64,000 nt of DNA, from positions 1 to 64,000 of the IMG/VR virus record IMGVR_UViG_3300014152_000001. The stretch is one strand, 5' to 3'. Origin of the DNA: a virus. Both the position numbers and the translations under genes were made by a program. Positions 560-62,300 of the stretch are shown in pieces; the stretch's first letter is position 1; each line of letters opens with the position of its first letter. Below the pieces are notes generated by a model. That model did not search any database and had not been told where the DNA came from. It saw only the letters and a list, made by a program, of their open reading frames with translations.

Positions 560-946
560 ATGGTGTTGCCAAAAAAATGTTATGGAGTTGTTGAAATCCG
601 AACCTCTCCCTCTGGATGGTGGGAAGGGTGTCTCAATATCACACCATTGGTCGAGCAGGTTCCTGCCGTTACAGGTGCTCTCTTCGATGTGGACAATATC
701 AAAGGCTTGAAACCGATTGCCGCCAGACGGGAGATACCAGAGGATAGGTCTTTCATGACTGAGACGCTTGTGCAGGAGATGAACCTCTTCTACTACAACG
801 CGACTTGGATACGCCCTGCTGAGATAAAGCAAGCCTTCAACGTCATAAAGACAGAGAAGGGATGGGCTACCGTATTCAAACTCATCTCAGACTTTGCCGA
901 GCAGTATGGCGAAAACAACTGTCGTTTAATCGTGTGGTTTAGTTAG
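560..946 (+). CDS. Hypothetical protein
   Basis: gaatctttatata promoter at ~530; C-terminal W..VF.L....AEQYG..N.RLIVWF motif. Confidence 0.7.
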   Translation: MVLPKKCYGVVEIRTSPSGWWEGCLNITPLVEQVPAVTGALFDVDNIKGLKPIAARREIPEDRSFMTETLVQEMNLFYYNATWIRPAEIKQAFNVIKTEKGWATVFKLISDFAEQYGENNCRLIVWFS

Positions 947-1461
947 ACTCGAATGAGGTTCTGAGCCTTAATGAAGTTGCACAAGATACACCACACTTCG
1001 TATCCTTCTGGATAGTTATGGAGACGAAGCCACACATAGAAACGCCATCCACCGTATCCTATTCTACGCCTTTCTTCAGCACCATTATTGTTGGGATGGT
1101 CAATGGTGAGACCTCTGATGTCAGCAACAGGACATAATCCCGTATGCCAACAATCTTTTCCTTTACACATACAACGTGGCGGATTTCCCGCATAATGAGT
1201 AAAAGCCATCATTCTTTCCTTATTGCGTTGTTCCTTTCCTCTTATTCGTTCTTTCGCTCTAATTTCTTCTCCATGAAGAGCATACCGTTTCTTTGCTTGT
1301 CTAAGAATCGCACTGTGATTCTCCTTGTAATACTTGGCCTTGTAAGCCAACTTCTTGGTTCGATTCTTCTGATACGACCTTCTGGCAATTTCCTTTGCTC
1401 TTTCAGGATTCTTCTCTCGCCATTCTTTCTGATACTCTGCACCAGTCTTCATAGCAACCAA
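943..1461 (-). CDS. HNH-like endonuclease, paralog 1 (start likely 1452)
   Basis: Basic N-terminus; TIDHPNNNG...FYVWL..HNYPEGYEVWC..CN. Confidence 0.8.
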   Translation of the reverse strand: MVAMKTGAEYQKEWREKNPERAKEIARRSYQKNRTKKLAYKAKYYKENHSAILRQAKKRYALHGEEIRAKERIRGKEQRNKERMMAFTHYAGNPPRCMCKGKDCWHTGLCPVADIRGLTIDHPNNNGAEERRRIGYGGWRFYVWLRLHNYPEGYEVWCILCNFIKAQNLIRV

Positions 1462-3792: not shown

Positions 3793-4485
3793 CTAGAGCA
3801 ACTCGTGTGGACTCTTCAAGAAGATACGCCAATCCAAAGGAATGGGCTCTCTCTTATAGAGAGCATACATTTCATCAACGTAATTTTCTGGGTATTGGGA
3901 GCGTCTAAGTATTTCTTGGAGACTCATATCTGGACTCACAGGGACTTTCCATCTTATAGGGGTAGGGTGTTCAGGGTTAACCGAGTGCTTAGTGAGGGTG
4001 ATGCGACAAATCCTGTCCAAACTGATGAAGACCCTCTTATCGTGACGATACTGAAGCCAAGTGGCTAGGTTCCAATAGAGTTCGTCTCGATACCCATGCA
4101 ACTCTTTGTAGGTGGTAGGAGTGATGTAGATGTAGAAATGAAAACCCTTTCCCGCACTGAAGAACATATCCACATTGTCCCAAAACCTAGTGCCAAAGAA
4201 CCTCGCTTTCTCCAAGACACCAGCAAAGGTGTCGCCCTCTTTCACATCTATATCTACAAAGAGCCTGTCCAACACCACGGCATCCTTTCGTGGCTGTGGC
4301 CAGTCTTTAGTCTTAAGTGGAGCATAGAAGGGGAAGTAGGCATCTTCCACACTAGAAAGCCTGTTCAAAACAAAGTTGTAGTAATCTGCTTTTGTTTCCA
4401 TGTGATAACGGTAGAGTCCTACGTCTGCCGGAATCTGAGGCAAATCTCTATCCCAATAGAGACGACCCAATTCAAGTAATGGCAT
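3793..4485 (-). CDS. priS: Archaeo-eukaryotic primase catalytic subunit (PriS-like)
   Basis: LFVDID, FSAGKGFHFY, DRICRI..TKH motifs. Confidence 0.85.
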   Translation of the reverse strand: MPLLELGRLYWDRDLPQIPADVGLYRYHMETKADYYNFVLNRLSSVEDAYFPFYAPLKTKDWPQPRKDAVVLDRLFVDIDVKEGDTFAGVLEKARFFGTRFWDNVDMFFSAGKGFHFYIYITPTTYKELHGYRDELYWNLATWLQYRHDKRVFISLDRICRITLTKHSVNPEHPTPIRWKVPVSPDMSLQEILRRSQYPENYVDEMYALYKREPIPLDWRIFLKSPHELL

Positions 4486-5830
4486 ATTTAATGGAGTCGA
4501 GATTCATCACCTTTATTTGTTCTACATAAGTCTTAGCCTGCTCGATGACATCATCCACAATCTTCTCCAAGTCGCCCACCATCAGAATCTCCACTGCGGC
4601 CAATCTGGGTAGGTTGTCCACTAGAGCGCAGTTCAAAGCCCCACCCCGAATGTGAGGAAAGGAGTGAGCGTAGTGCGCCTTGAGAAAGGACGAGACCTCT
4701 ATTATCTCACAATCCTCAATCTCTTCAAAAAGACCTCTCTCATATACGGGTGTGTTGCAGAAGTCTCGAACCTTGTGATTGAACCAGAACTTCCTCAGAG
4801 TCAGGGTTATCCTCTCTTCTAAGGCTCGATAGTCGTCAATCAATCCCTTATGCAAGTCGCTGTCGTATCCCATGTCCTGTAGTGGAGCATAGTCTCCATA
4901 GGCCAGAATACCGAACCTTCTTCCCATTGCGTAACTATTTCTACAGAGGAAGCCTAGAATATCTCTAAAGACCGATACATGGGTTCCTTGGAGAGCGAGA
5001 GGATTGGCCGTCACAACGAAGGGACACGCACCTGTCACCGATAGAGTTGTGCCACCGCCAGCCACCGTTGCCCTTCCCGATTCTAAGAATCCTAGCAGGA
5101 ATCCGGCCATGTTTTCCACCGTCTGGCTCTCAATCTGGTCTATCGCAAGCGGATAGTATTGCTCATGGAACAACCCATAAGCCTTATCGTCAGTCCACTT
5201 GGCCGACCCTAGAAGGGTGTTCTTGGTGGCCTTGTCAATCAATCTGCCAGCCAACTCGAAGAAGGTGCTCTTGCCAGTGTTAGGCGGAGTAATCTGTAAT
5301 TCGTGGGGCTGATACCTCATGACATAGCCTCTCGGTAGGGTGGCTCTGTTAGCCAGAACCAGAGCAGGGTCTCTTGTGCAGTTGTATTCCATGATGCCTT
5401 TGATGAGATTGTTATACTCTTCGGTAGGTTTGTCTGCAATAGCATCGAACCACTTGCCCAAAGTAATGTCATTGAACTGATAGTCCGTCCCAAAAACATA
5501 CATCCCCAAGTCATTCCATTCTTCTAGCCTTGGGTCGCCTCTCTGAATCTTGTTCATGATGTAGCCCTGTTCCTTCAATTCAAAGATAACATCTAAATCC
5601 TTAATAGTCATCTCAGTTAGAGGTAGGGCAGACTTCTTGCTATGGATAACGCTTTTAGTATCTACGATGTAGATAGGCGGAGTTATCACTGTTGGGTAAG
5701 CCCGATAGAGTTTGGCTCCTACGGTGATGAGGATTCCATTGTCGGTCTTCTCCATCTCAGACTTCTGATAGACGGGTTCGATTTGCTCAAAAGAATTGAG
5801 CACTTTGTTCTCAGACATTGGTTTCATCAC
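4472..5830 (-). CDS. MCM-like AAA+ ATPase, probable replicative helicase (start likely 5818)
   Basis: PPNTGKST Walker A, LAIDQIE Walker B variant, VVTANP sensor, RRF arginine finger. Confidence 0.7.
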   Translation of the reverse strand: MMKPMSENKVLNSFEQIEPVYQKSEMEKTDNGILITVGAKLYRAYPTVITPPIYIVDTKSVIHSKKSALPLTEMTIKDLDVIFELKEQGYIMNKIQRGDPRLEEWNDLGMYVFGTDYQFNDITLGKWFDAIADKPTEEYNNLIKGIMEYNCTRDPALVLANRATLPRGYVMRYQPHELQITPPNTGKSTFFELAGRLIDKATKNTLLGSAKWTDDKAYGLFHEQYYPLAIDQIESQTVENMAGFLLGFLESGRATVAGGGTTLSVTGACPFVVTANPLALQGTHVSVFRDILGFLCRNSYAMGRRFGILAYGDYAPLQDMGYDSDLHKGLIDDYRALEERITLTLRKFWFNHKVRDFCNTPVYERGLFEEIEDCEIIEVSSFLKAHYAHSFPHIRGGALNCALVDNLPRLAAVEILMVGDLEKIVDDVIEQAKTYVEQIKVMNLDSIKYAIT

Positions 5831-5990
5831 TCTCTATTGGGGCTATTAAGGATTGTGTTCTTGACCTCGCCCTTATCAACTCACGCCAATTGGCAAGGGT
5901 TCTCAGTATTCGCTCATCTTCGGCTGTATCGGGAAAGCCCTGTGTAAGTTCGATTATTCTATTGGCTAAACAGGGATACAGTATCTCCAT
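5811..5990 (-). CDS. 59-aa mini-protein with MCP-like N-terminal segment (not in ORF track)
   Basis: MEILYPCLANRIIELTQ vs MCP 16-30 LFYPALAKRIVELTM; own promoter aatccttattaa on minus strand at ~6013-6024. Confidence 0.75.
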   Translation of the reverse strand: MEILYPCLANRIIELTQGFPDTAEDERILRTLANWRELIRARSRTQSLIAPIESDETNV

Positions 5991-6071
5991 TACCTATCTT
6001 GCGTGAGTAAGGTTAATAAGGATTCTCACTCGTAAGCATTTAAATAGGCCAATTACGCAGGGTATAGTAGC

Positions 6072-6749
6072 ATGGCAGAACCAGAAGGAGAGAAGGAACC
6101 AGTCGAGAAGCCGACAAAAGAGGCACTCGAAGACCTTTATCCAGATGTGGATATGCCCCACCTTCAGGCCGTCATCCAACTTCTTTACCACACGGCCAAC
6201 GAGATTGACGACATTGAGAGCATAGACGCTACTCCCTATGTGACAGTCTATGTAGGTGGCGAAGAGTGGTTCGTTATGAACGACAGCGAGGCTGATGGGT
6301 ATGCTGAAGAGAGTGCAGAAGAGTTGTTTGATGAGATGGAAATGGATGCGTTGCCCGGAGACTGGCCCGACTTCATAATGAACAAAGATGAGTTCGATTC
6401 GGCTTTATCCGAAGCCATTCAAAACTACATTGAGACCGCTAGAGAGGAGCCGTCTAACGACCCTACAACCTACGATAGCAAACTAGACGAGGAGATGGCC
6501 GGAGCCAATACCGCCTCAGAACAGGAGTTCGAGGATTATCTCACTACTCAATGGGTTCCAGACGGAGACGTTATCCAGTGGTTCATCAACGAATATGGTC
6601 ACGAAGCCTTTAAAGAGACGGCCAATGTTGATGCTACAGCCCTCGCCAAGCACATCATGGAAACGGAAGGAAGAGGTTCTATCATCGCATCCCATGATGG
6701 AGAAGAGATTGACCTTGGTAAAGGTTACTACGGCTATCGTCTGAGTTAA
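6072..6749 (+). CDS. Highly acidic protein, possible DNA mimic
   Basis: Very D/E-rich; C-terminal GRGSIIASHDGEE..YYGYRL. Confidence 0.6.
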   Translation: MAEPEGEKEPVEKPTKEALEDLYPDVDMPHLQAVIQLLYHTANEIDDIESIDATPYVTVYVGGEEWFVMNDSEADGYAEESAEELFDEMEMDALPGDWPDFIMNKDEFDSALSEAIQNYIETAREEPSNDPTTYDSKLDEEMAGANTASEQEFEDYLTTQWVPDGDVIQWFINEYGHEAFKETANVDATALAKHIMETEGRGSIIASHDGEEIDLGKGYYGYRLS

Positions 6750-6787: not shown

Positions 6788-7183
6788 ATGAGAACTTTGA
6801 CCAGAGAAGATAAACTAAAGTATCTCAAGACCTACAGAGAAACGCATAGGAGAGAGCGTTATCTCTACAATCGAGAATACTTCCACAAGTTGAAACTTAC
6901 GGTTCTTACCCATTATTCTGGAACCAATCCACCCCAATGTGCCAATCCTTATGGAGAGCACAAAGAACCATACACTAACATAAAGGCTCTCTCAATAGAC
7001 CATATCAACGGTGGTGGGAATAAGCATAGGAAGACCATTGGTTGGAGTCTCTACTATTGGCTTATTGCCCACAACTATCCCAAAGGCTTTCAGGTGCTTT
7101 GTATGAACTGCCAATTCATCAAGAAGTATGAAGAGGCTTACACAGAATCCTTAAATAGAATAGAGAGGAAGGGTATGATATGA
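6788..7183 (+). CDS. HNH-like endonuclease, paralog 2
   Basis: HYSGTNPPQCANP...SIDHINGGG...YYWL..NYPKGFQVLCMNCQ. Confidence 0.82.
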   Translation: MRTLTREDKLKYLKTYRETHRRERYLYNREYFHKLKLTVLTHYSGTNPPQCANPYGEHKEPYTNIKALSIDHINGGGNKHRKTIGWSLYYWLIAHNYPKGFQVLCMNCQFIKKYEEAYTESLNRIERKGMI

Positions 7184-8694: not shown

Positions 8695-8912
8695 GCAAAG
8701 AAGAGGCATGGTGGAGAAAGTTTCCCAAGGAAACCTACGAGTATCCAGAGGAGGTACTGGAAGGAACCATCGTCATGGAGTATCTGAACTCAAAAGGAGA
8801 AGTTGTGATGAGTCAGCCCTGTTTTGCTTTTGCCAAATGGTCTCGGATTTGGAGTGACATAGACTACAACATCAGAGATGGGATGCTGGCTCTGTTTGGT
8901 GAGAAAGAATGA
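8691..8912 (+). CDS. Hypothetical protein
   Basis: Overlap-coupled ORF in the replication operon. Confidence 0.55.
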   Translation: MSKEEAWWRKFPKETYEYPEEVLEGTIVMEYLNSKGEVVMSQPCFAFAKWSRIWSDIDYNIRDGMLALFGEKE

Positions 8913-9067
8913 AACTAGCCAATCAAGAAGAGTTGAATAAGGCAAGAGGCTCACAGATAAGTGGCTTCGTTTCCTACGATGCACTATATGATATGATTAC
9001 TATTCCAAGTTGTGTCTATGGAATGAGGCCAATTCACGTTTCAAGAGAGGCGATTGAAGATTGGTAG
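8909..9067 (+). CDS. 52-aa mini-protein resembling MCP residues 80-104 (not in ORF track)
   Basis: YDMITIPSCVYGMRPIHVSREAIEDW vs YDSITVTPYKVGMR-VRVTRELIEDQ; overlaps both neighbouring genes. Confidence 0.75.
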   Translation: MKLANQEELNKARGSQISGFVSYDALYDMITIPSCVYGMRPIHVSREAIEDW

Positions 9068-11169
9068 TTCCTTTCGATTCGGCCACCTATACCACACAGA
9101 ATGGTAAGGTCAAGATGAAGGTCTATAGGAATGGAGAGGTCGAACTCATAGACCCTGACCCCATGCCTTATTGCTATGCGCCAGCCAAATACGAAATCCA
9201 GACACAAGCCAAGATGACGAGGACAGATATGAGGACTTTCGATACAGGAGAGAGCGTGAAGAGATACACCTTTCCACAACCTATGAACGTAAAGGCGTTC
9301 CGCACTTGGCAAGAGGGCAAGGGCATTCCCGTCTATGAAGCCGACAAAAAGTATGTGGGAGTTTGGATGGCAGACAACGGGTTCGTATGCGATGACTATC
9401 CCAACCAAGCCTCATGGGACACAGAAGAGGACGACTCCAAGTCCAAGCCCGACCCAGAGACGGCCAACGTTCCGATAACGGCTATAGGCATAGTCTATAA
9501 GGGACAGAAGTATGCGTGGACGGGCATCGAGAAAGAGATTCTTAAGGGAGCAGTAGACTTCATAGCAGAGAACAAGATTACTATGTTGAAGGGATGGAAC
9601 ACCCACTTCTGGGACGTTCCCTTCTTTTCCAAGAGGCTGGCTTACGCAGGCATCAAGTTCGACTTTAGTTCCGTCAGATTCCTAGACCTAGCCCTCTGCT
9701 ATCGTTTCATGGAGAAGAACTTCAGGAGCCAGTGGTCGCTGGAGAAGGTGGGTAGGAGATTGCTCAATGAGCAAAAGCCCTTCGTCAACACTAGACTCAG
9801 CACCCTGCCGCCAGAGCAACTAAAGGAGAGAGTCCTGTGGGATGCGAAAATGACGGAGAAGATAGACGCTAAGAAGGGATATACCGGAGTGGCCATACAA
9901 CTGGCCAAGCAGGGTCATATCTTTCCAGACCAGATATTTGGAATCCATCCCATCAAGAAATCCATCACCATCACCCCCGTCCTAGACCAATACTTCTTGA
10001 AGTATGCCCACAAGATTAACTATGTCTTGCCTTGCAAGTCGGGATATAAGCAGAGGCCCAAATATACAGGAGCATGGGTCGAAGTCTTCGAGCAGGGGTT
10101 CTTTGAAGATGTGCTACAGTTCGATGTGGACTCCCTGTATCCCAACATCATCCTAGCGTATAAGTTGGCCCCGTTGGGTAGGTTCGACTTGGTTGAACCC
10201 ATCGTCAGAGACCTGCTTGCTGGCAAGAGGAACGCCAAAGACGAGGTAGAGAGATGGGCATATAAGATTACCGTCAATGCCTTATACGGTCTCTTCGCCA
10301 GTTCCTATTACCGATTCAAGGCCGTAGAAGTGGCAGACAGTATAACCTATCACGGCAGAGACATAGTTACCCATACAGCAGAGTTTCTAAGAAGTATGGG
10401 TTATACGGTCTACTACATAGATACGGACTCCTGCTTCGTGAAGGGCAAATTCGGTGAAGCAGAGACCATAAGAGACATGATGAACTCTTATGTGGCCAAG
10501 ACATACAATGTAGATAACATCAAATTCGGGATGGAGAACCATTGGAGTCTGCTCGGATTCCCAAGGGGGGCCAAGGGCGAGAAGACCAAGAAGCGTTACT
10601 ATGGTATAGTCCATGTCAACAAGAAAGGTGAAGTGGTGGACAAGTTTGAAGAGGCTGGCATGGAAGGCTTGCGTGGGGATTGGTGTGAGTTGGCGAGGAA
10701 CGTGCAAGACACCATAAAGAGGTTCCAAGTCACCAAAGTCCCGAAGGAGAAGATGGTGGAGTTCTATGAGGATACAAAAGTCAGACTCTACAAGGGACTT
10801 TACGACCCCCTTCTGGTCATGGAGAAACATATGGGGAAGGATGTCTCAGAGTATGGTCAGATGAAGAAGGACGAGAAGACGGGAAAGATGCGGAAGATGC
10901 CTACCCCACAACACGTTAAGGCTTTACGAGATGCGATGGAACATGGGTGGGTTCCCAGTGATATGGTCCAATATGGTGTGGTCCAATACTATATGTGCAG
11001 AGGAGCCATACCCAAACTGGTCAATCTAGTAAGGCTGGGTGAGATAGACTATGCTTGGTATTGCTCCCATCAGATAGACCCCATAGTTTGGCGATTGGGA
11101 ATAATCGAACAGATGAGCAAATATAAGAAGGAGAAGGTTATAGCGGAAGACCAGTCTACCTTAGACTAA
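9061..11169 (+). CDS. polB: Family B DNA polymerase
   Basis: Exo motifs WDTEE and GWN..FWD.PF; DVDSLYPNI, KITVNALYG, YIDTDS. Confidence 0.96.
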   Translation: MVVPFDSATYTTQNGKVKMKVYRNGEVELIDPDPMPYCYAPAKYEIQTQAKMTRTDMRTFDTGESVKRYTFPQPMNVKAFRTWQEGKGIPVYEADKKYVGVWMADNGFVCDDYPNQASWDTEEDDSKSKPDPETANVPITAIGIVYKGQKYAWTGIEKEILKGAVDFIAENKITMLKGWNTHFWDVPFFSKRLAYAGIKFDFSSVRFLDLALCYRFMEKNFRSQWSLEKVGRRLLNEQKPFVNTRLSTLPPEQLKERVLWDAKMTEKIDAKKGYTGVAIQLAKQGHIFPDQIFGIHPIKKSITITPVLDQYFLKYAHKINYVLPCKSGYKQRPKYTGAWVEVFEQGFFEDVLQFDVDSLYPNIILAYKLAPLGRFDLVEPIVRDLLAGKRNAKDEVERWAYKITVNALYGLFASSYYRFKAVEVADSITYHGRDIVTHTAEFLRSMGYTVYYIDTDSCFVKGKFGEAETIRDMMNSYVAKTYNVDNIKFGMENHWSLLGFPRGAKGEKTKKRYYGIVHVNKKGEVVDKFEEAGMEGLRGDWCELARNVQDTIKRFQVTKVPKEKMVEFYEDTKVRLYKGLYDPLLVMEKHMGKDVSEYGQMKKDEKTGKMRKMPTPQHVKALRDAMEHGWVPSDMVQYGVVQYYMCRGAIPKLVNLVRLGEIDYAWYCSHQIDPIVWRLGIIEQMSKYKKEKVIAEDQSTLD

Positions 11170-11560
11170 ATATTCGTTTTTTCCATTGACAATTCCAACA
11201 CAAGTCTTGGAATCCAGAGGGAAAGTTATTTCTCTTGAGCCAAAGATAGAATGAACTACCATATCCAATCGTTTTACGTTCTTTTGTTCCACCATCATTG
11301 ATGTGGTCTACAGTAAGACAATCTATATCGGTAAGCATGGGGTCATTAGGTAAATGCAAATGAAAAGGGTCTGCACAAACTGGATATGGCTTAGTAGAGT
11401 AATGTGTAAGGACTTCAACTTTCAGGTCGTGCCTCTCTTTCCGAGTTTTGAGATTGGCTTCCTTCTTATGCTTACTATACCATGTTTTGAAATATCCTCT
11501 CCATTTGCTTCTATTTTTCTCATAGTAATCCTTATGATAGTTAGAATCCATAGAAGTCAC
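11156..11560 (-). CDS. HNH-like endonuclease, paralog 3
   Basis: TVDHINDGG...FYLWLKRNNFPSGFQDLCWNCQ. Confidence 0.82.
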   Translation of the reverse strand: MTSMDSNYHKDYYEKNRSKWRGYFKTWYSKHKKEANLKTRKERHDLKVEVLTHYSTKPYPVCADPFHLHLPNDPMLTDIDCLTVDHINDGGTKERKTIGYGSSFYLWLKRNNFPSGFQDLCWNCQWKKRIFSLR

Positions 11561-25938: not shown

Positions 25939-26373
25939 TCATAAATACTGATTATGAAGTTCTGTGTTCTTGAAACGTTTTACAAATTGACAATTCATGC
26001 AAAGCACCTGATAGCCAGTTGGATAGTTATTGGCTCGAAGCCATGTGTAGAATGCCCATCCCCCATGTTTATTTAACTTGCTTCTCTCTTTACCACCTTT
26101 TCCATTAATATGGTCTATCGAGAGAGCCAGAATGTTTGTATAGGGCTTTTCGTGCTCACCGAATGGGTTGACACATTGGGGTGGGTCTGTGCCAGAATAG
26201 TAGGAAAAGACATCATGTTTCAACTTACTCTTAGACCGCACAACTGCTTCTCTATTGTAGAGCCTAACCTTGGCTCGATTGGTAGAATAGTATTCTCTTT
26301 CCTTTAGCCTTATTTCTTCTCTATGCTTTACACGATAGCGTCTATTACGTTCTAACTTCTTAGCGTCATTCAT
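25939..26373 (-). CDS. HNH-like endonuclease, paralog 4
   Basis: YSGTDPPQCVNPFGEH...SIDHING...YQVLCMNCQ. Confidence 0.82.
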   Translation of the reverse strand: MNDAKKLERNRRYRVKHREEIRLKEREYYSTNRAKVRLYNREAVVRSKSKLKHDVFSYYSGTDPPQCVNPFGEHEKPYTNILALSIDHINGKGGKERSKLNKHGGWAFYTWLRANNYPTGYQVLCMNCQFVKRFKNTELHNQYL

Positions 26374-35004: not shown

Positions 35005-35415
35005 ATGCCATATAAGAATCCAGAAGATAAGAAGGCTTGGTTTCAACGAAACAAAACCAGAATGGAAGAGAAGTCTCGTATTTGGAAAAGGACTCACAAA
35101 TCGTCAATCAACAAAAGCAATAATAAGAGTCGAAAGAAGTTACGTCTTAAAGTATTGATTCATTATTCTGGAACAGACCCGCCCCAATGCGTTAATCCTT
35201 TCAATTTGCATCTTCCTAACGACCCATTTCTCACAGACCTCAGAGTTCTCTCTATTGACCATATTAATGGTGGTGGACGAAAGGACAGAAGAGAAGGCAA
35301 AAGCGGTTCCTTGTTCTACTATTGGCTTCAGAGAAACAACTTCCCAAAGGGCTTTCAAGTGCTCTGTATGAATTGCCAGTATGTGAAGAGAGAACTTAAT
35401 AAGGAGCACAACTAA
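35005..35415 (+). CDS. HNH-like endonuclease, paralog 5
   Basis: SIDHINGGG...YYWLQRNNFPKGFQVLCMNCQ. Confidence 0.82.
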   Translation: MPYKNPEDKKAWFQRNKTRMEEKSRIWKRTHKSSINKSNNKSRKKLRLKVLIHYSGTDPPQCVNPFNLHLPNDPFLTDLRVLSIDHINGGGRKDRREGKSGSLFYYWLQRNNFPKGFQVLCMNCQYVKRELNKEHN

Positions 35416-35427
35416 AGACAATATGAT

Positions 35428-35889
35428 ATGGTGCTGATTTCCCAACCGCCTTCAGGGATAGACCCCATCCTCTTCCTAGAGAACTTGCTAGAAGGTTTCG
35501 TCAAAGATGAGAAAGGAAACGATGTTCCCTTAGGAACCGTCTTTCCAAAGTCCATAAACAAACTACCGAGAGTGATAATCAACCAAAAGACAGAAGAGAT
35601 GAAATTCATCAGCATCCCTGCTATCAGACGCAGATGGACTACGCCCTTCACCCTAGAATGTTGGGCCTTGAGCGTGGCCCAAAGATACGCCATAAAGCAA
35701 AGCCTGATGGCTAGACTGGATACTCTTACTGGCAACCCCGGAGTGCAACTTGCAGACAACTACATCTATATGTGGTTCAAGATTCACGAGCCGAAAGACC
35801 AACCAAGCAGATTTGGGCAACCCATATTCACGATAGGTTTCGAGATTACACTGGTTTACGATACCTTAACAGGAAGTGTGCCTCCATGA
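35428..35889 (+). CDS. Tail terminator-like protein
   Basis: LPRVII, F.LECWA motifs; neck gene context. Confidence 0.55.
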   Translation: MVLISQPPSGIDPILFLENLLEGFVKDEKGNDVPLGTVFPKSINKLPRVIINQKTEEMKFISIPAIRRRWTTPFTLECWALSVAQRYAIKQSLMARLDTLTGNPGVQLADNYIYMWFKIHEPKDQPSRFGQPIFTIGFEITLVYDTLTGSVPP

Positions 35890-35942: not shown

Positions 35943-36332
35943 GTGTCAGCACAAAAGAGATACTACCAAAATCACAAAACCGCAATGCTACAGAAGAGTA
36001 AAGACTACTATTGGAGCCACAAACCAAAAATACAAAGGGAACAAAAAGAGTATCGGGAGCAAGTTCGTATACAAGTTTTTACTCATTATGGCGGCAATCC
36101 ACCCAAATGCGCTTGTTGTGGGGAGAGCAGAATCGAGTTTCTCACTATAGACCACATCAACAACGATGGTGCAAATCAACGGAGACGTATATGGGGCCAG
36201 AAAGTATCTGGTTTTGGATTCTATGCGTGGTTAGTTAGAATGAACTTTCCTGAAGGCTATCAAGTTTTATGTTTCAACTGCAACTGTGGCAGAGCACATA
36301 CTTTAAATAAGGTATGCCCTCATAAACAGTAG
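35943..36332 (+). CDS. HNH-like endonuclease, paralog 6
   Basis: CACCGE..IEFLTIDHINNDG...YQVLCFNCN..CPH. Confidence 0.82.
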   Translation: MSAQKRYYQNHKTAMLQKSKDYYWSHKPKIQREQKEYREQVRIQVFTHYGGNPPKCACCGESRIEFLTIDHINNDGANQRRRIWGQKVSGFGFYAWLVRMNFPEGYQVLCFNCNCGRAHTLNKVCPHKQ

Positions 36333-36333
36333 A

Positions 36334-36399
36334 ATGGTCACGCGAGAACAGGTTCCTATCGTCAATACAGGAGCATTATTCTATCCCGGAGTAGGTTGA
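36334..36399 (+). CDS. 21-aa micropeptide copying the MCP N-terminus (not in ORF track)
   Basis: MVTREQVPIVNTGALFYPGVG vs MCP MAMTREQFPIVNTGALFYPAL; tttaaata at 36302-36309. Confidence 0.8.
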   Translation: MVTREQVPIVNTGALFYPGVG

Positions 36400-36866
36400 G
36401 ATTTACGCTTTCGTAAGGCTTCTTTCTTGAATTGACAATTCATACATAACACTTGGTATCCTTCTGGGTATCCTCTAACAAAGAGCCACCAATAGATGTT
36501 AATACCACCCCAATTCTTGGTCTTAGCCACTAATCTTCGCTCCTTTGCTCCATCATCATTGATATGGTCTATCGTAAGACAATCTACATCTGTAAACGGT
36601 TCTTTGTGCATTCCAAAAGGATTGGCACATTGAGACGGGTTAGTGCCAGAGTAATGAATCAACGTCTTAACTTTCATCTGATATTTGGCCTTCTTCCGAT
36701 TTGCGTTATACTTCTTTCTATGTTTTCTATAATATCCTCGTTCTCTATTATTTTTTGCAGACTGTTTTTTGTCGCACTCTTTACAGACCCGACTGTTGAT
36801 TCGCTTATGACATGGATACCAATTTTCATCGGCTAACAATATTCCACAGACACGGCAATTGGTCAT
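36381..36866 (-). CDS. HNH-like endonuclease, paralog 7
   Basis: N-terminal CRVC..CKEC; TIDHINDDG...YQVLCMNCQ. Confidence 0.82.
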   Translation of the reverse strand: MTNCRVCGILLADENWYPCHKRINSRVCKECDKKQSAKNNRERGYYRKHRKKYNANRKKAKYQMKVKTLIHYSGTNPSQCANPFGMHKEPFTDVDCLTIDHINDDGAKERRLVAKTKNWGGINIYWWLFVRGYPEGYQVLCMNCQFKKEALRKRKSQPTPG

Positions 36867-38428: not shown

Positions 38429-38857
38429 ATGGAATACAAAACTTCTGAAGAGAAGAGAGCCTACCAAGCAGACTACGCCAAAACACATAAGGAAGAGAAA
38501 CAGGCTTACGATAGGAAGTATTGGAAAATCCGTTATGCTAAAAATAGCAAGCAATACTTGGAAAACAGAGCGAAAGCGACAAGAGAACGGAAACTACTTG
38601 TCCTAAGTCATTACAGTAGTAATCCGCCCAAGTGTGCTTGTCCACCTTGCGGAGAGACCATTATCGAATTTCTCTCAATAGACCATATTATCCCTATTGG
38701 TAATAAAGCGAGAGACAATCAACTAGGCACGCGACACGGAAGCAATCTCTACGGCTGGCTCATTAGACACAACTTTCCAGAGGGCTTCCAAGTGCTCTGT
38801 ATGAATTGCAACTTCGCCAAAGGACACTACGATAAATGTCCTCACGAGAGACTGTAG
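38429..38857 (+). CDS. HNH-like endonuclease, paralog 8
   Basis: SIDHIIP...YGWL..HNFPEGFQVLCMNCN..CPH. Confidence 0.82.
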   Translation: MEYKTSEEKRAYQADYAKTHKEEKQAYDRKYWKIRYAKNSKQYLENRAKATRERKLLVLSHYSSNPPKCACPPCGETIIEFLSIDHIIPIGNKARDNQLGTRHGSNLYGWLIRHNFPEGFQVLCMNCNFAKGHYDKCPHERL

Positions 38858-53469: not shown

Positions 53470-54732
53470 TTGCTCCTCTGTATCATGAAGACAATGCCAG
53501 AACTCGTTCTTACAGCGGTAGTCAACCAACTTACCTCAACGGGTGGAACACTCACTCTCTCACCCACAACAGGGCTAGGAGTTGTAGATGTATCCATTGC
53601 TCTTGCCCATGCTAATACTTGGTCTGGGTCACAGACATTCTATAGTTCGGGCCTGCTTCTCAATAATCCTGCTAATACCTTTGCCTACACCTTTGTAGGG
53701 GCGGCTATTGCGGCAAGTCACAACATCACTCTTCCTCTCTTAACTGGAAGCGACACTATGGCTGTGCTAGGGTTTGCTCAAACTTGGACTGCGGCACAGA
53801 CCTTCTACAGTTCCGACTTCCTTATTAACAATCCTGCCAACACCTTTGCTTACACATTCGTAGGTGCGGCTATAGGCGCTTCACACGACATAACCCTACC
53901 ATTGCTTACTGGAAACGATACAATGGCCGTCTTAGGGTTTGCACAAACTTTCACTGCAACTCAGACCTTCCACGAGATAGACACTGCTACAGATGCTACC
54001 TATGCAATAGGAACGACAACCAATAGATGGACTTCAGTTCATGCTCAAAACTTCCAAGTAGAAGCCGCTTCAGGCGATGCCAACCCAACTGCCAAACTTA
54101 CTAATGGAGCACTCTACTTTGGTGCGGGTGGAGCAAGCGCATTGGACATTGAAATAAACCGCACAGGTTCGACAACCCTCACTATGACTGCTGGAACCTT
54201 TGCCTTTGGTAATACTGGTATCAGTATTGGTGGTGCGTCTTACGACATTACCAAAGTCACTGCATTAGCCACAGGAGACATTGTTTTCTATGACGGGACC
54301 AATTGGATTAACTTGGCGGTTGGAGTCAGCACCAGTTATGTGCTTGGAGTCAGTGCCGGAAAACCATCATGGGTAACTTTCTCAAGTCTTGGTGGTGTCT
54401 CTGCTCCTCAGAACATATACACTGAGTATGAACTTCCAGATGTGGCTTCACATAACATCGCCACCTACACGCCAAGTGCGGCAGGAAATCTTATGCTTAT
54501 GGTTTACTATAGAGTTACTGTGGGCGCAACTAATGTGACTCTTACTGCGACTTGGACAGACCAAGCAGGGGCGCAATCCTATTCATGGATGAGTGCCGTT
54601 TCAAACGCAACTGGTTCTTACTCAGTCCTGCCTTTGTTCATCAACAGTGCGGCTTCACAGCCAGTTACAATTGCGGCAACAGCCGGAACAGCAAACCAAG
54701 TCTACACAACTGCCTCAATAATGTTGATGTAA
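53470..54732 (+). CDS. Tail fibre protein A
   Basis: ANTW..QTF repeats, GDIVFYDGTNWINL; paralog of the next gene. Confidence 0.7.
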   Translation: MLLCIMKTMPELVLTAVVNQLTSTGGTLTLSPTTGLGVVDVSIALAHANTWSGSQTFYSSGLLLNNPANTFAYTFVGAAIAASHNITLPLLTGSDTMAVLGFAQTWTAAQTFYSSDFLINNPANTFAYTFVGAAIGASHDITLPLLTGNDTMAVLGFAQTFTATQTFHEIDTATDATYAIGTTTNRWTSVHAQNFQVEAASGDANPTAKLTNGALYFGAGGASALDIEINRTGSTTLTMTAGTFAFGNTGISIGGASYDITKVTALATGDIVFYDGTNWINLAVGVSTSYVLGVSAGKPSWVTFSSLGGVSAPQNIYTEYELPDVASHNIATYTPSAAGNLMLMVYYRVTVGATNVTLTATWTDQAGAQSYSWMSAVSNATGSYSVLPLFINSAASQPVTIAATAGTANQVYTTASIMLM

Positions 54733-54733
54733 A

Positions 54734-56176
54734 TTGGGTATTTTACATCGGAGGACCAAGAAGAAGGATGCTACGTTAGTGTTGCCCGTCCTTAAACATG
54801 AATATTACCCTACTGGTGGCCTCAGTGCTGAAGCCCTCTACGCAGTCACTCAACTTACTTCTACAGGTGGTTCTCTTACTCTCTCGCCTACAACCGGAAT
54901 AGGAGTAGTAGATGTTAGTCACAATCTCAGTCACGCCAACACTTGGATTGCTACCCAAGCCTTCGGGAATACCTACCTAAGTCTGGGTGGGGCCACATTC
55001 GATATAACCAAGAACACTGCGTTGGCTACAGGAGACATCATCATCTACGATGGAACCAACTGGATTAATCTGGCGGTGGGCACTGGAAGTCAAGTGCTTG
55101 GAGTAAGCGGTGGAATCCCAACATGGGAAGCCGTGCCAGCAACAGCAGGAGTCACATCATTGGGCGGTGTGACGGGGGCCATAACTCTGAGTTCTGGGCT
55201 TTCAATGGCGGCTTCTGTTCTAACAGTTACCTTCCCAACTGTTGTTACCTCTTTTGCGACAAAGACAGGAGCCATTACATTAGGTTCAGGACTCTCAATG
55301 TCCAGCAACGAATTAGACGTTACTTTTCCAACTGTAGTCACAAGTTTTGCTACTAAGACAGGAGCGATTACACTAGGCTCAGGTCTTTCAATGTCGAGCA
55401 ACGAATTAGATGTTACATTCCCAACTGTAGTGACCTCATTGGGCGCACAAACGGGAGCCATTACTCTAAGTTCGGGACTTTCAATGGTAGGGTCTGTTCT
55501 TACGGTGACATTTCCAACTGTTGTCACCTCAATAGATTCATTGACTGGAGCAGTGACTACATCAAGTCCAAACAGCACTCTATCTCTTAGCACGACATCT
55601 CAGAATAGGAACTTTGACATCAATCTTGGCAACGCCAACAGTTGGACTGGCGTTCAGTCTTTTGGTAATACCTACCTAAGTTTGGGCGGAAAAGCATTCG
55701 ACATCACTAAGAACACTGTGTTGGCTACAGGAGACATCATTTTCTATGATGGAACCAACTGGATTAACTTGGCGGTTGGGGCCAGTGCCAGTTATGTGCT
55801 TGGAGTCAGCGGTGGTCTACCAGCATGGGTTGTAGGTAGCAATCCTCTTGTAGCGAGTGCTAAAGAAACCAAGTTAACAACTACAGGTGCTACCAACGTA
55901 ATCAATTACACTACAGTCGCGGCTGGAAACTATGCCGTCAATGTATACTTCAGAGTCGTCACTGGGGCTACCGTAGTAACGCTTACTTACGTTTGGACAG
56001 ACGTTACCGGAGCGCAATCCTACACTTACCTCAGTGCCGTCTCAGAATCTACTGGCTCCTACACTATGCAACCACTCTTCTTCAATGCGACAAATAGCAG
56101 TGCCATCCAAGTCACTGCCACCGCTGGAACGGCCAACCAAGTGTATGTCTCAGCATCGGTGATATTAGAATCATGA
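54734..56176 (+). CDS. Tail fibre protein B
   Basis: VTS....TGAITL ~30-aa repeats; shares N- and C-terminal domains with fibre A. Confidence 0.7.
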   Translation: MGILHRRTKKKDATLVLPVLKHEYYPTGGLSAEALYAVTQLTSTGGSLTLSPTTGIGVVDVSHNLSHANTWIATQAFGNTYLSLGGATFDITKNTALATGDIIIYDGTNWINLAVGTGSQVLGVSGGIPTWEAVPATAGVTSLGGVTGAITLSSGLSMAASVLTVTFPTVVTSFATKTGAITLGSGLSMSSNELDVTFPTVVTSFATKTGAITLGSGLSMSSNELDVTFPTVVTSLGAQTGAITLSSGLSMVGSVLTVTFPTVVTSIDSLTGAVTTSSPNSTLSLSTTSQNRNFDINLGNANSWTGVQSFGNTYLSLGGKAFDITKNTVLATGDIIFYDGTNWINLAVGASASYVLGVSGGLPAWVVGSNPLVASAKETKLTTTGATNVINYTTVAAGNYAVNVYFRVVTGATVVTLTYVWTDVTGAQSYTYLSAVSESTGSYTMQPLFFNATNSSAIQVTATAGTANQVYVSASVILES

Positions 56177-60373: not shown

Positions 60374-61324
60374 CTACAATGACCTTAGACCTGTTAATTG
60401 CACGACACTCTCCGGGTATGTGATAACCGGGGCATAGCGAGCAGTGATAACAATGTCTATCGAATCGAAAGTAGGTTGAGGCCAGACATCCACACTGATG
60501 GGTCTCTTCGTTGCGAAGTAACCCAACGGTGCATATGAGGCTGAATAGTTGCTACCAGCCGCGGCAAGGACGTATGCGCGTCCATCGAAGCCGCTGTTTG
60601 GTAACAGTGGAGCCTGTGGGATGTTCGGGGTGACTATCTGCTTCAGTCCATACAACTGAGGTGCTGAAACCACTGTTCCAGTTCCCTGAGCGTATACGGG
60701 CTGTCCGTAGAAGAGTAGGGCGGCAAACTGAGGTATCCTTGACAGGTCTTGATGAGCCATTGGGTTCATCGCAATCGTGTCAGGTTCCAAAGCAAGGTTC
60801 TGTATCACTTGCTTCGCCTGAGTTATGTCGTTAATCCCTATTGTTCCACCATACGCAGTTGTCGTCCCATCCATGAACACTGAAGCCCCTGTAACGGGCT
60901 GTGCGATGCCGTGACCAGCCGGGGCATTGAGTGCTTTCTCAACGTCTTGGTCGATGGTCATAACGACCCGTCTCGCGGCTCGTTTCAGTTGGTCTTCTAC
61001 AATGTTCACTATTTGGTCTTCAATCAACTCTCTAGTGACTCGGACTCTCATACCCACCTTGTAAGGTGTAACGGTAATCGAGTCGTAAGGTGTGAAGTCA
61101 GCCATAATCTCGGCTCCCTCTGCCGTCTTTCCTATGACGGCTGTAGCACGAGCACCCTTCTGCTTCGGTATCGAAGCAGTCGCTCCAACCTTGATGAAGA
61201 AGTCCTGAAGTAGAGGCTTCAATGCCAAGTTAGGCATTGTGAGTTCTACTATCCTCTTCGCCAGTGCTGGATAGAATAGAGCACCTGTGTTAACTATTGG
61301 GAACTGTTCACGAGTCATAGCCAT
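60374..61324 (-). CDS. Major capsid protein (HK97-fold)
   Basis: AEGAEI, K.G....VTRELIED, I..NDI..A...I, IAMNP, LYGL..IVTP.IP; follows protease/scaffold/cement genes. Confidence 0.9.
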   Translation of the reverse strand: MAMTREQFPIVNTGALFYPALAKRIVELTMPNLALKPLLQDFFIKVGATASIPKQKGARATAVIGKTAEGAEIMADFTPYDSITVTPYKVGMRVRVTRELIEDQIVNIVEDQLKRAARRVVMTIDQDVEKALNAPAGHGIAQPVTGASVFMDGTTTAYGGTIGINDITQAKQVIQNLALEPDTIAMNPMAHQDLSRIPQFAALLFYGQPVYAQGTGTVVSAPQLYGLKQIVTPNIPQAPLLPNSGFDGRAYVLAAAGSNYSASYAPLGYFATKRPISVDVWPQPTFDSIDIVITARYAPVITYPESVVQLTGLRSL

Positions 61325-61339
61325 TCTCTTTCACCTGTT

Positions 61340-61771
61340 TTAGAACAGAAGTGCTACGATAGGCAAAGGCGTGGCAACATATGTGCCGCCCTGCAATGCG
61401 ATAAGTCTAGTTGGCCCTGCTATGGGTGCAACATAACCATCGGTGGTTGCAGAAACGTCAAGATACTGACCAGCCGTGACAGTAGCATCGCAAAGCACAG
61501 TTACCTCACCACGACAAATGACATCAATTGCCGCGTTGAGTTGACCAGAGGTTTGGGCAATTCCAAGTAGGAATCCGCCTGTTACCGTTGCGGCCACAAC
61601 TTCACAAGTGAAGTCTGCCGTAGTAGCCAACGTAACCAATGCTCCAATGTATATTGCTGTCCCGTTTACATTTGCTATCGCATTGAAAGAGAGAAGGAAT
61701 GAATCATTGTGGAAGGGTGCGCCTTCAAGAGTTCCGGGGAGCGAACTGCCGTGTGGAATTGGGATAGCCAT
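61340..61771 (-). CDS. Capsid cement/decoration protein (DUF2190-like)
   Basis: GA.V.L, LGIA, V..RG.V.V.....V.AG..L. Confidence 0.7.
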   Translation of the reverse strand: MAIPIPHGSSLPGTLEGAPFHNDSFLLSFNAIANVNGTAIYIGALVTLATTADFTCEVVAATVTGGFLLGIAQTSGQLNAAIDVICRGEVTVLCDATVTAGQYLDVSATTDGYVAPIAGPTRLIALQGGTYVATPLPIVALLF

Positions 61772-61784
61772 TTTCTATCTCACT

Positions 61785-62300
61785 TTAACCCGACAGTAGA
61801 CCCAGTTCCTTGAAGCGGCTTGAAGCACCTGTAATCTCCTTCCAGTAGTCTGGGAACTCCGCAGAGGCACCAAAGCCAGCGAGTGGACTCGTCTCTTCCT
61901 TGACCGCCCCAACGTTACCCTTTCCGGTAACTTCGGGAGCCTTGGCAGACGCTTCCCTTGCTTTCTTGGCTTCCTCTACCTTGCTCTTGACTTCCTGAAG
62001 TCTCGACTTCAGTTCTTCAAGTTTCTTGCGCTTAACTTCCTCTTCTTCCTTCTTTTTCTTTTGGGCTTCCTCGTTTTCCTCGCTCTTTGCTTCAGATGCT
62101 CTCCTCAAGGCAATCCTCTGAGACAGCAACGCGGCTCTTTTACCGCGAAGGTCTTGCTGTTCCAGTTTTATGTTGACTTCCTTGATGATGGACATCAGAC
62201 CATCGAGTTTGGATTCGAGAGAACCCATCTGCTTCACAATTTGGTCATAACTGAGAGCCTTGCCCTCAGATATATCACCAGAAGGTGCGACAGTAGACAT
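61785..62300 (-). CDS. Scaffolding protein
   Basis: Charged coiled coil between protease and capsid genes. Confidence 0.7.
   Translation of the reverse strand: MSTVAPSGDISEGKALSYDQIVKQMGSLESKLDGLMSIIKEVNIKLEQQDLRGKRAALLSQRIALRRASEAKSEENEEAQKKKKEEEEVKRKKLEELKSRLQEVKSKVEEAKKAREASAKAPEVTGKGNVGAVKEETSPLAGFGASAEFPDYWKEITGASSRFKELGLLSG

Follow-up and report, generated by a model that had tools for sequence, protein, structure and literature searches.

A strain-variable small open reading frame between the promoter and the start codon of a viral ATPase-primase operon, and its short resemblance to the capsid N-arm

Introduction

Why does a small open reading frame (ORF) of 59 amino acids lie between the promoter and the first conserved gene of a viral replication module, and does the resemblance of its N-terminus to the major capsid protein (MCP) tell us what it does? 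The ORF, called ORF59 here, is found in a 64,000-nucleotide (nt) stretch of viral DNA that we refer to as the window, and which covers the opening 64 kb of a virus record that is 105,748 bp long and carries direct terminal repeats (IMG/VR record IMGVR_UViG_3300014152_000001). The original prediction described ORF59 as a mimic of the MCP N-terminal helix, equipped with its own promoter, lying directly upstream of helicase and primase genes and probably expressed early, before the MCP itself. We arrive at a different reading, to which we assign a probability of roughly 55%: ORF59 is a strain-variable small accessory gene, a moron-like cassette, in a recurrent slot that separates the promoter of an ATPase-primase operon from the start codon of the ATPase gene. 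The locus has the marks of an accessory cassette, with presence or absence at clean junctions and reuse of the slot by unrelated ORFs.

The virus is an archaeal-type, leaderless-mRNA tailed virus, and the window also codes for a tail tube protein, a large terminase and a family B DNA polymerase. Of 135 crude gene calls, 35 have a TATA-type octamer that begins 28-40 nt upstream of their ATG. Strong matches to the promoter motif are followed by a start codon at a fitting distance and an ORF of at least 40 amino acids in 62 of 78 cases, and sites found with a relaxed motif precede an ATG-started ORF of at least 40 amino acids in 27 of 40 cases, mostly at 30-31 nt. This spacing of the octamer before the starts implies that most first genes are leaderless or nearly so.

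Results

ORF59 fills a gap between the operon promoter and the ATPase gene

The locus contains the following features.

5811-5990, minus strand: ORF59, 59 amino acids, ATG start
5819-5990, minus strand: 172-nt segment present in the window and absent from the relative L002/G001, from the ORF59 ATG to just before the ATPase ATG
6011-6027, minus strand: TATA-type promoter, AATCCTTATTAA core, which begins 30 nt before the ORF59 ATG (the modal spacing)
5841-5857, minus strand: second promoter-like motif, AATCCTTAATAG core, in the 3' part of ORF59 and 32 nt before the ATPase ATG, assigned by motif geometry only
5811-5818, minus strand: overlap of the ORF59 stop with the ATPase start, 8 nt, ATGTCTGA
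4472-5818, minus strand: P-loop ATPase, 448 amino acids, putative replicative helicase (Walker A PPNTGKST, by direct reading)
3793-4485, minus strand: archaeo-eukaryotic (AEP-type) primase-like protein, 230 amino acids (DxD and sGxGxH-type motifs, by direct reading)

The predicted ORF is present on the minus strand with an ATG start, and its frame spans the entire insert. Comparison with contig IMGVR_UViG_3300018005_000012 (L002/G001), whose ATPase is 96% identical in protein and whose DNA is ~86% identical around the gene, yields a single clean gap of ~172 nt in which ORF59 is wholly missing. In L002, the ATPase gene begins with a TTG codon, and the orthologous TATA promoter, 21 nt ahead of that codon, drives the ATPase directly. 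Since this orthologue precedes the ATPase gene without anything in between, the TATA promoter in front of ORF59 is the promoter of the operon. The promoter claimed for ORF59 does therefore exist, at the modal distance of 30 nt, but it belongs to the operon and is not private to ORF59.

The ATG of ORF59 falls at the canonical leaderless position. The two promoter-like motifs at either end of the ORF form a 12/14 direct repeat, 170 nt apart; simple recombination between them fails to explain the indel, because L002 keeps the spacer of the first promoter. Neither a stem-loop nor a T-run was seen in the insert. An origin of the insert by tandem duplication of the intergenic region was rejected, the local alignment score of 18 being equalled or exceeded by 15% of shuffles.

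The same slot is empty or filled differently in other lineages

In five contigs of the G004 lineage (L047, L048, L049, L051 and L054), the promoter is followed by 22 nt and then by the ATPase ATG, so that the slot is empty. In relative G004 itself, the same promoter is followed by an unrelated, Cys-rich ORF of 83 amino acids that ends in TAAATG at the ATPase start, a cassette without the second promoter-like motif. G005 carries ORFs of 82 and 70 amino acids upstream of its ATPase. The ATPases of G004 and G005 are 63% and 55% identical, respectively, to that of the window. Because the window and the G004 lineage are filled differently, the position between promoter and ATPase start is a recurrent slot for unrelated small ORFs. 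The G004 slot ORF (L034 2842-3093, minus strand; L050 2249-2500, plus strand) displays a CxxC ... CxC ... CxxC pattern.

ORF59 is called as a gene in exact copy on four contigs. The conservation in relatives that would have backed the original prediction was largely not found: ORF59 is absent from G001 and, even at an E value of 10, from the complete relatives G004 and G005, and it was not found in the genome fragments G002, G003, G006, G007 and G008. Searches of GenBank phages (blastn and tblastn) and of GTDB genomes (two scans) gave no match, and scans of IMG/VR and JGI metagenomes gave chance 8-mer matches only. An exact 8-mer match is expected by chance in a collection of the size of IMG/VR. 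One such match, L005, is a shared FPDTAEDE stretch inside the baseplate-J protein of an unrelated phage, Baseplate_J being absent from the genome of the window; another, L008, is an 8-mer on an unrelated metagenome contig, in a frame antisense to a long ORF, and was likewise discarded as chance.

Searches of ~5.8 billion clustered proteins and of 1.84 billion representatives yielded a sole homologue, P0002, a protein of 57 amino acids that is 70% identical to ORF59. The two share 31 of 32 N-terminal residues and differ by an in-frame indel of two residues, with no frameshift, while their tails have strongly diverged; residues 1-34 would form the conserved core of ORF59. A second candidate, P0003 (535 amino acids, three GTPase-like repeats; E 9e-8), was rejected, as its score is inflated by three near-identical repeats; its best single stretch reaches 31 bits against ORF59, far short of database-wide significance.

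ORF59 is predicted to encode a small helical protein

The AF2 model of ORF59 consists of three helices (residues 6-17, 23-33 and 35-57; mean pLDDT 76.6). ORF59 has no match in Pfam, PHROG or NCBIfam, a fold search with its model in PDB and BFVD returned nothing at E <= 0.001, and a Protein Atlas search gave no usable match. Of the six frames across the locus, that of ORF59 has the best codon-usage score. An RNA element or structured leader at this position was rejected, with no Rfam match at E <= 1 and no excess folding (z +0.8). With its start at the leaderless position and its stop on the ATPase start, ORF59 is a plausible real ORF, apparently placed to be transcribed and translated. The early expression attributed to it would follow solely from the gene module in which it lies.

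The N-terminus of ORF59 resembles the capsid N-arm over 14 residues

Three further features enter here.

60374-61324, minus strand: MCP, HK97 fold, 316 amino acids (Pfam PF25209 and PF05065, PHROG major head protein)
61238-61279, minus strand: MCP N-arm motif, residues 16-29
5943-5984, minus strand: MCP N-arm-like motif, ORF59 codons 3-16

Among 92 homologues of 31-93% identity, no part of the MCP N-terminus is more conserved than the N-arm motif, which has the consensus Y-P-x-L-x-x-[RK]-[IV]-[IV]-E-L-T. AF2 predicts that MCP residues 19-28 form a helix, but its confidence there is low, as would be normal for an N-arm that is free. ORF59 residues 3-16 align with MCP residues 16-29 without gaps (9/14 identical, 11/14 similar, 24.3 bits), and the AF2 models place helices here in both proteins, in agreement with the resemblance originally noticed. 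All six invariant or near-invariant residues (Y, P, L, E, L and T) are present in ORF59, which departs from the MCP motif only at positions that vary within the MCP family. The observation that the codons mostly differ also holds: five of the nine identical residues (P, L, A, R and L) use different codons and four (Y, I, E and T) the same. DNA identity over the motif is 27/42. Recent capture from the MCP DNA of a relative was rejected, none of 21 MCP loci exceeding 27/42 identity to the motif.

How significant the resemblance appears depends on the method. In an all-against-all BLASTP of the 445 window ORFs of at least 40 amino acids, ~29 non-paralogous pairs score at least as high as ORF59 and the MCP, which rank ~30th, and tblastn of the MCP against the whole 105.7-kb genome gives ORF59 an E value of 0.63, beside clearly spurious matches of equal score. 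When all 4015 six-frame segments of the genome were searched with a profile hidden Markov model built from the N-terminal 60 residues of 81 MCP homologues, they ranked as follows.

MCP itself: 116.7 bits, E 7.5e-35
Mini-ORF region 36307-36396: 21.7 bits, E 3.6e-5
ORF59: 16.0 bits, E 0.0021
Next real non-MCP segment: 5.6 bits, E 3.7

In 60 shuffles of the six-frame set, the best score was 13.2 bits and none reached 14. An independent run with a 14-row MCP alignment gave ORF59 15.9 bits, hhalign of ORF59 against the MCP family gave a probability of 75% (E 2.6e-5) over 14 columns, and the motif in the diverged homologue P0002 scores 14.6 bits against the MCP profile. The answer to the shuffling check proposed with the original prediction thus varies with the test: the family-profile score of ORF59 exceeds the shuffle maximum, whereas the BLASTP and tblastn scores lie within noise.

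No similarity extends beyond the N-arm motif, alignments against all 92 homologues ending at 14-15 residues. ORF59, with 59 amino acids against ~300 for the HK97-fold MCP family, gives no match to a P/A-domain family model. Because the match is post hoc and covers only 14 residues, we regard the resemblance as suggestive and not established. From the sequence comparisons, it is probably a true relationship and not pure chance, yet a very short one.

A mimic would be expected to be kept wherever its target is kept. G004 and G005 lack ORF59; over the MCP N-arm, G004 is 100% and G005 98% identical to the window, and the N-arm of G001 is likewise identical or nearly so. ORF59 cannot have a core role, because it is absent from relatives with an identical N-arm. 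Comparison of the whole genome with G004 and G005 shows mosaicism: the MCPs are 83-85% identical overall and 98-100% identical over the N-terminal 45 residues, and the replication ATPases only 55-63%.

The gene directly before the MCP gene (61340-61771, minus strand) codes for a beta-rich, Gly/Ala/Thr-rich, decoration-like protein, despite a weak PHROG 'scaffolding' match. One gene further upstream lies a better candidate.

61785-62300, minus strand: probable scaffolding protein, a charged coiled coil whose C-terminal motif is conserved, assigned from composition and gene position only

This gene, rather than 61340-61771, is the more likely true scaffold.

Other pieces of the MCP N-terminus occur in these genomes

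The highest-scoring segment after the MCP in the profile search belongs to a separate, syntenically conserved feature.

36334-36399, plus strand: mini-ORF of 21 amino acids copying MCP residues 3-21

In G000, G001, G004 and G005, whose ATPases are only 55-96% identical, this mini-ORF comes directly after the same gene of ~153 amino acids (35428-35889 in the window). Its counterparts are L039 1501-1554, L044 1501-1539 and L041 1501-1626, and the G005 version reaches about residue 31 of the MCP. GALF is found in all copies, and GALFYP in all except that of G001. A role for HNH genes in carrying such MCP fragments as cargo was rejected, as the 36334-type fragment keeps its syntenic place whether or not HNH genes lie next to it. 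To judge from its synteny, the 36334-type mini-ORF is an old feature. The recurrence of MCP N-terminal pieces in this virus group raises the prior for a mimic a little.

G004 also encodes a second MCP-like protein of 305 amino acids (L040 859-1770, minus strand; proteins P0063, P0084 and P0090), absent from the genome of the window. At the N-terminus of this protein, an extension similar to the conserved C-terminal motif of the scaffold precedes the N-arm motif, which suggests a paralogue formed by fusion of a scaffold tip with an MCP.

Neighbouring genes

ORF59 had been placed upstream of helicase and primase genes. It does head an ATPase-primase operon, in which the primase-like gene overlaps the end of the ATPase gene by 14 nt, but the name 'helicase' finds no backing in databases: the ATPase has no Pfam, PHROG, NCBIfam or PDB match, and its language-model look-alikes are DUF927 proteins, which serve as a lead only. 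From its sequence motifs, a helicase is plausible. The primase-like protein has a weak LigD_pol match (E 0.13).

On the other side of ORF59, beyond gene 6072-6749, the next feature is a nuclease gene.

6788-7183, plus strand: HNH endonuclease gene, one of eight paralogues

This gene is also missing from L002, a presence/absence difference of 431 nt. The eight HNH paralogues of the window (943-1461, 6788-7183, 11156-11560, 25939-26373, 35005-35415, 35943-36332, 36381-36866 and 38429-38857) are 30-56% identical among themselves. Small ORFs that start with M-[KE]-x-A-N-Q lie near the polB or ATPase gene, at 8909-9067 (plus strand) in the window and at 2009-2221 and 2218-2466 in L052 (G005), which suggests a small accessory family. 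The window member matches MCP residues 80-104 with 25 bits and a genome-wide E value of 0.28, which is noise level. Two adjacent large genes, 53470-54732 and 54734-56176 (plus strand), are paralogues, 57% identical over 178 amino acids and with internal repeats.

Discussion

What the slot implies for expression and function

If ORF59 is a strain-variable accessory gene, the operon promoter would now yield a leaderless mRNA with ORF59 as its first cistron. The ATPase would then be translated by termination-reinitiation coupling across the stop/start overlap, from a transcript begun at the second promoter-like motif in the 3' end of ORF59, or both. The product would be a small three-helix protein whose first helix, captured or convergent, carries the capsid N-arm consensus. 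We rate its role in the replication module as accessory, early and dispensable.

Several points weigh against this reading. The codon-usage score of ORF59 is 2.1, a low value for a real gene: just 3% of the in-frame windows taken from long genes score as little or less. An open frame by itself says little in favour of ORF59, as the other strand, too, is open throughout the insert (5818-6006). The ~172-nt indel may be an insertion or a deletion. Finally, the match to the MCP N-arm profile (E ~0.002) may mean that ORF59 has a capsid-related role.

Alternative explanations

Some of these points would fit a functionless relic, in which an MCP-like 5' piece or an unrelated stretch was joined to the operon by illegitimate recombination at a promoter-proximal hot spot, its frame open by luck and tolerated because the ATPase gene is still expressible. 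The atypical codon usage, the two open strands and the patchy occurrence are what such a relic would show, and true relics of the MCP N-terminus in these genomes score as weakly as ORF59 (for example, G004 54542-54580 at 15.3 bits). We nevertheless consider a relic unlikely. The 34-residue N-terminal core is nearly unchanged in P0002 despite the diverged tail, and the sole indel is in frame; the ATG lies exactly at the leaderless start position and the stop neatly overlaps the next start; and in an independent lineage the slot holds a different full-length ORF. Furthermore, as no MCP DNA of 21 relatives is closer than 27/42, any capture would be old, yet the invariant residues persist.

Somewhat less probable still is that ORF59 is a real accessory protein whose amphipathic N-terminal helix resembles the N-arm by chance. 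Coincidence would account for the ~29 unrelated ORF pairs of the window that equal the BLAST score and for the tblastn E value, as well as for the outcome of a phmmer search with ORF59 against 1.84 billion proteins, which returned no MCP. Many proteins or motifs could have been noticed in such a genome, which calls for a large post hoc correction. What chance explains poorly is the wide gap in the family-profile search, where ORF59 scores 16 bits, the next real segment 5.6 and the highest of 60 shuffles 13.2.

The least probable of these explanations, and in our view a doubtful one, is the original idea in a more specific form: a decoy, expressed from the replication module, whose helix occupies the partner of the N-arm, either the C-terminal helix of the scaffold or the site on the MCP where the N-arm docks, which would delay or poison the assembly of premature capsids of the virus itself or of capsids of a co-infecting relative. 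Both the MCP profile and hhalign single out ORF59, the near-invariant Y, P, L, E, L and T are kept while the differences fall at family-variable positions, the motif is retained in P0002 despite ~64% DNA identity to the MCP, and both segments are predicted to be helical. A contact of this kind has a precedent in phage 80alpha, in which the C-terminal helix of the scaffold contacts the N-arm helix of the capsid protein (PMC5644958), and the mini-ORFs from the MCP N-terminus are kept in synteny in four genomes. However, ORF59 is missing in G001, G004 and G005 and the slot of the L047 lineage is empty, although the N-arm is identical or nearly so wherever the MCP locus was recovered. The similarity stops after 14 residues, with no MCP homologue extending the alignment; the match is post hoc and its BLAST-level statistics are within noise; and a decoy would strike the assembly of the virus's own capsids too. 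Equally doubtful is the broader proposal that free peptides copying the capsid N-arm are made on purpose, with ORF59 (MCP 16-29) and the mini-ORF at 36334-36399 (MCP 3-21) acting as decoys that time the virus's own assembly or sabotage co-infecting relatives.

Relation to known systems

The accessory-gene reading of ORF59 can be set beside several known arrangements. The morons of lambdoid phages are extra genes that stand between conserved ones and are autonomous, each having a promoter of its own. ORF59 is similarly a strain-specific extra gene in an otherwise colinear genome, dispensable to judge from the relatives that lack it; unlike a moron, it has no promoter-terminator pair of its own, uses the operon promoter and is coupled by overlap to the next gene. 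Translationally coupled upstream ORFs have overlapping stop and start codons, as does ORF59 with its 8-nt ATGTCTGA overlap, and here the slot is conserved while the sequence is not, the G004 junction being TAAATG. In contrast to a required upstream ORF, relatives express the ATPase without any, so ORF59 is not needed for ATPase expression.

To our knowledge, CpmB of SaPI1 represents the only well-described kind of assembly mimic of the size of ORF59. CpmB is small and helical; its C-terminus is a copy of part of the 80alpha scaffold, and it binds the capsid protein beside the N-arm helix (PMC5644958). ORF59 is also a small, predicted helical protein that shares a short helix with a component of capsid assembly. 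The two differ in that CpmB copies the scaffold, comes from a phage parasite and has its binding shown by structure and genetics, whereas ORF59 would copy the N-arm, is encoded by the virus itself and is known from sequence.

A further parallel is offered by the hyperplastic regions of T4-type phages, in which cassettes of small ORFs lie between PeSL promoter-terminator motifs (Arbiol et al. 2010, PMC2839356; PMC4122927). As in these cassettes, close relatives either have or lack a small ORF with no assigned function at one set position beside conserved genes, and different lineages fill the slot with unrelated ORFs. Promoter-like motifs stand at both ends of ORF59, and different lineages fill the slot with unrelated ORFs. 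The ORF59 locus differs in its archaeal-type TATA promoter and leaderless starts, in that no stem-loop or terminator was seen, and in that its junctions are at start codons and not inside the repeated motifs.

Meaning for gene gain in archaeal-type viruses

The robust result is a clean example of the gain or loss of a small ORF in archaeal-type viral genomes. Cargo lands exactly behind the leaderless promoter of an essential operon and ahead of its start codon, assumes the leaderless start position and would pass expression on through a stop/start overlap. The same nucleotide position has been filled at least twice by unrelated ORFs, which is useful for annotation and for understanding gene gain. 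The likeness to the capsid motif matters only if binding is shown; if it is true, ORF59 would be a testable small inhibitor of HK97-type assembly and would be linked to the other mini-ORFs from the MCP N-terminus in these genomes. Should the decoy explanation prove true, ORF59 would be a virus-encoded inhibitor of capsid assembly built from a piece of the virus's own capsid gene.

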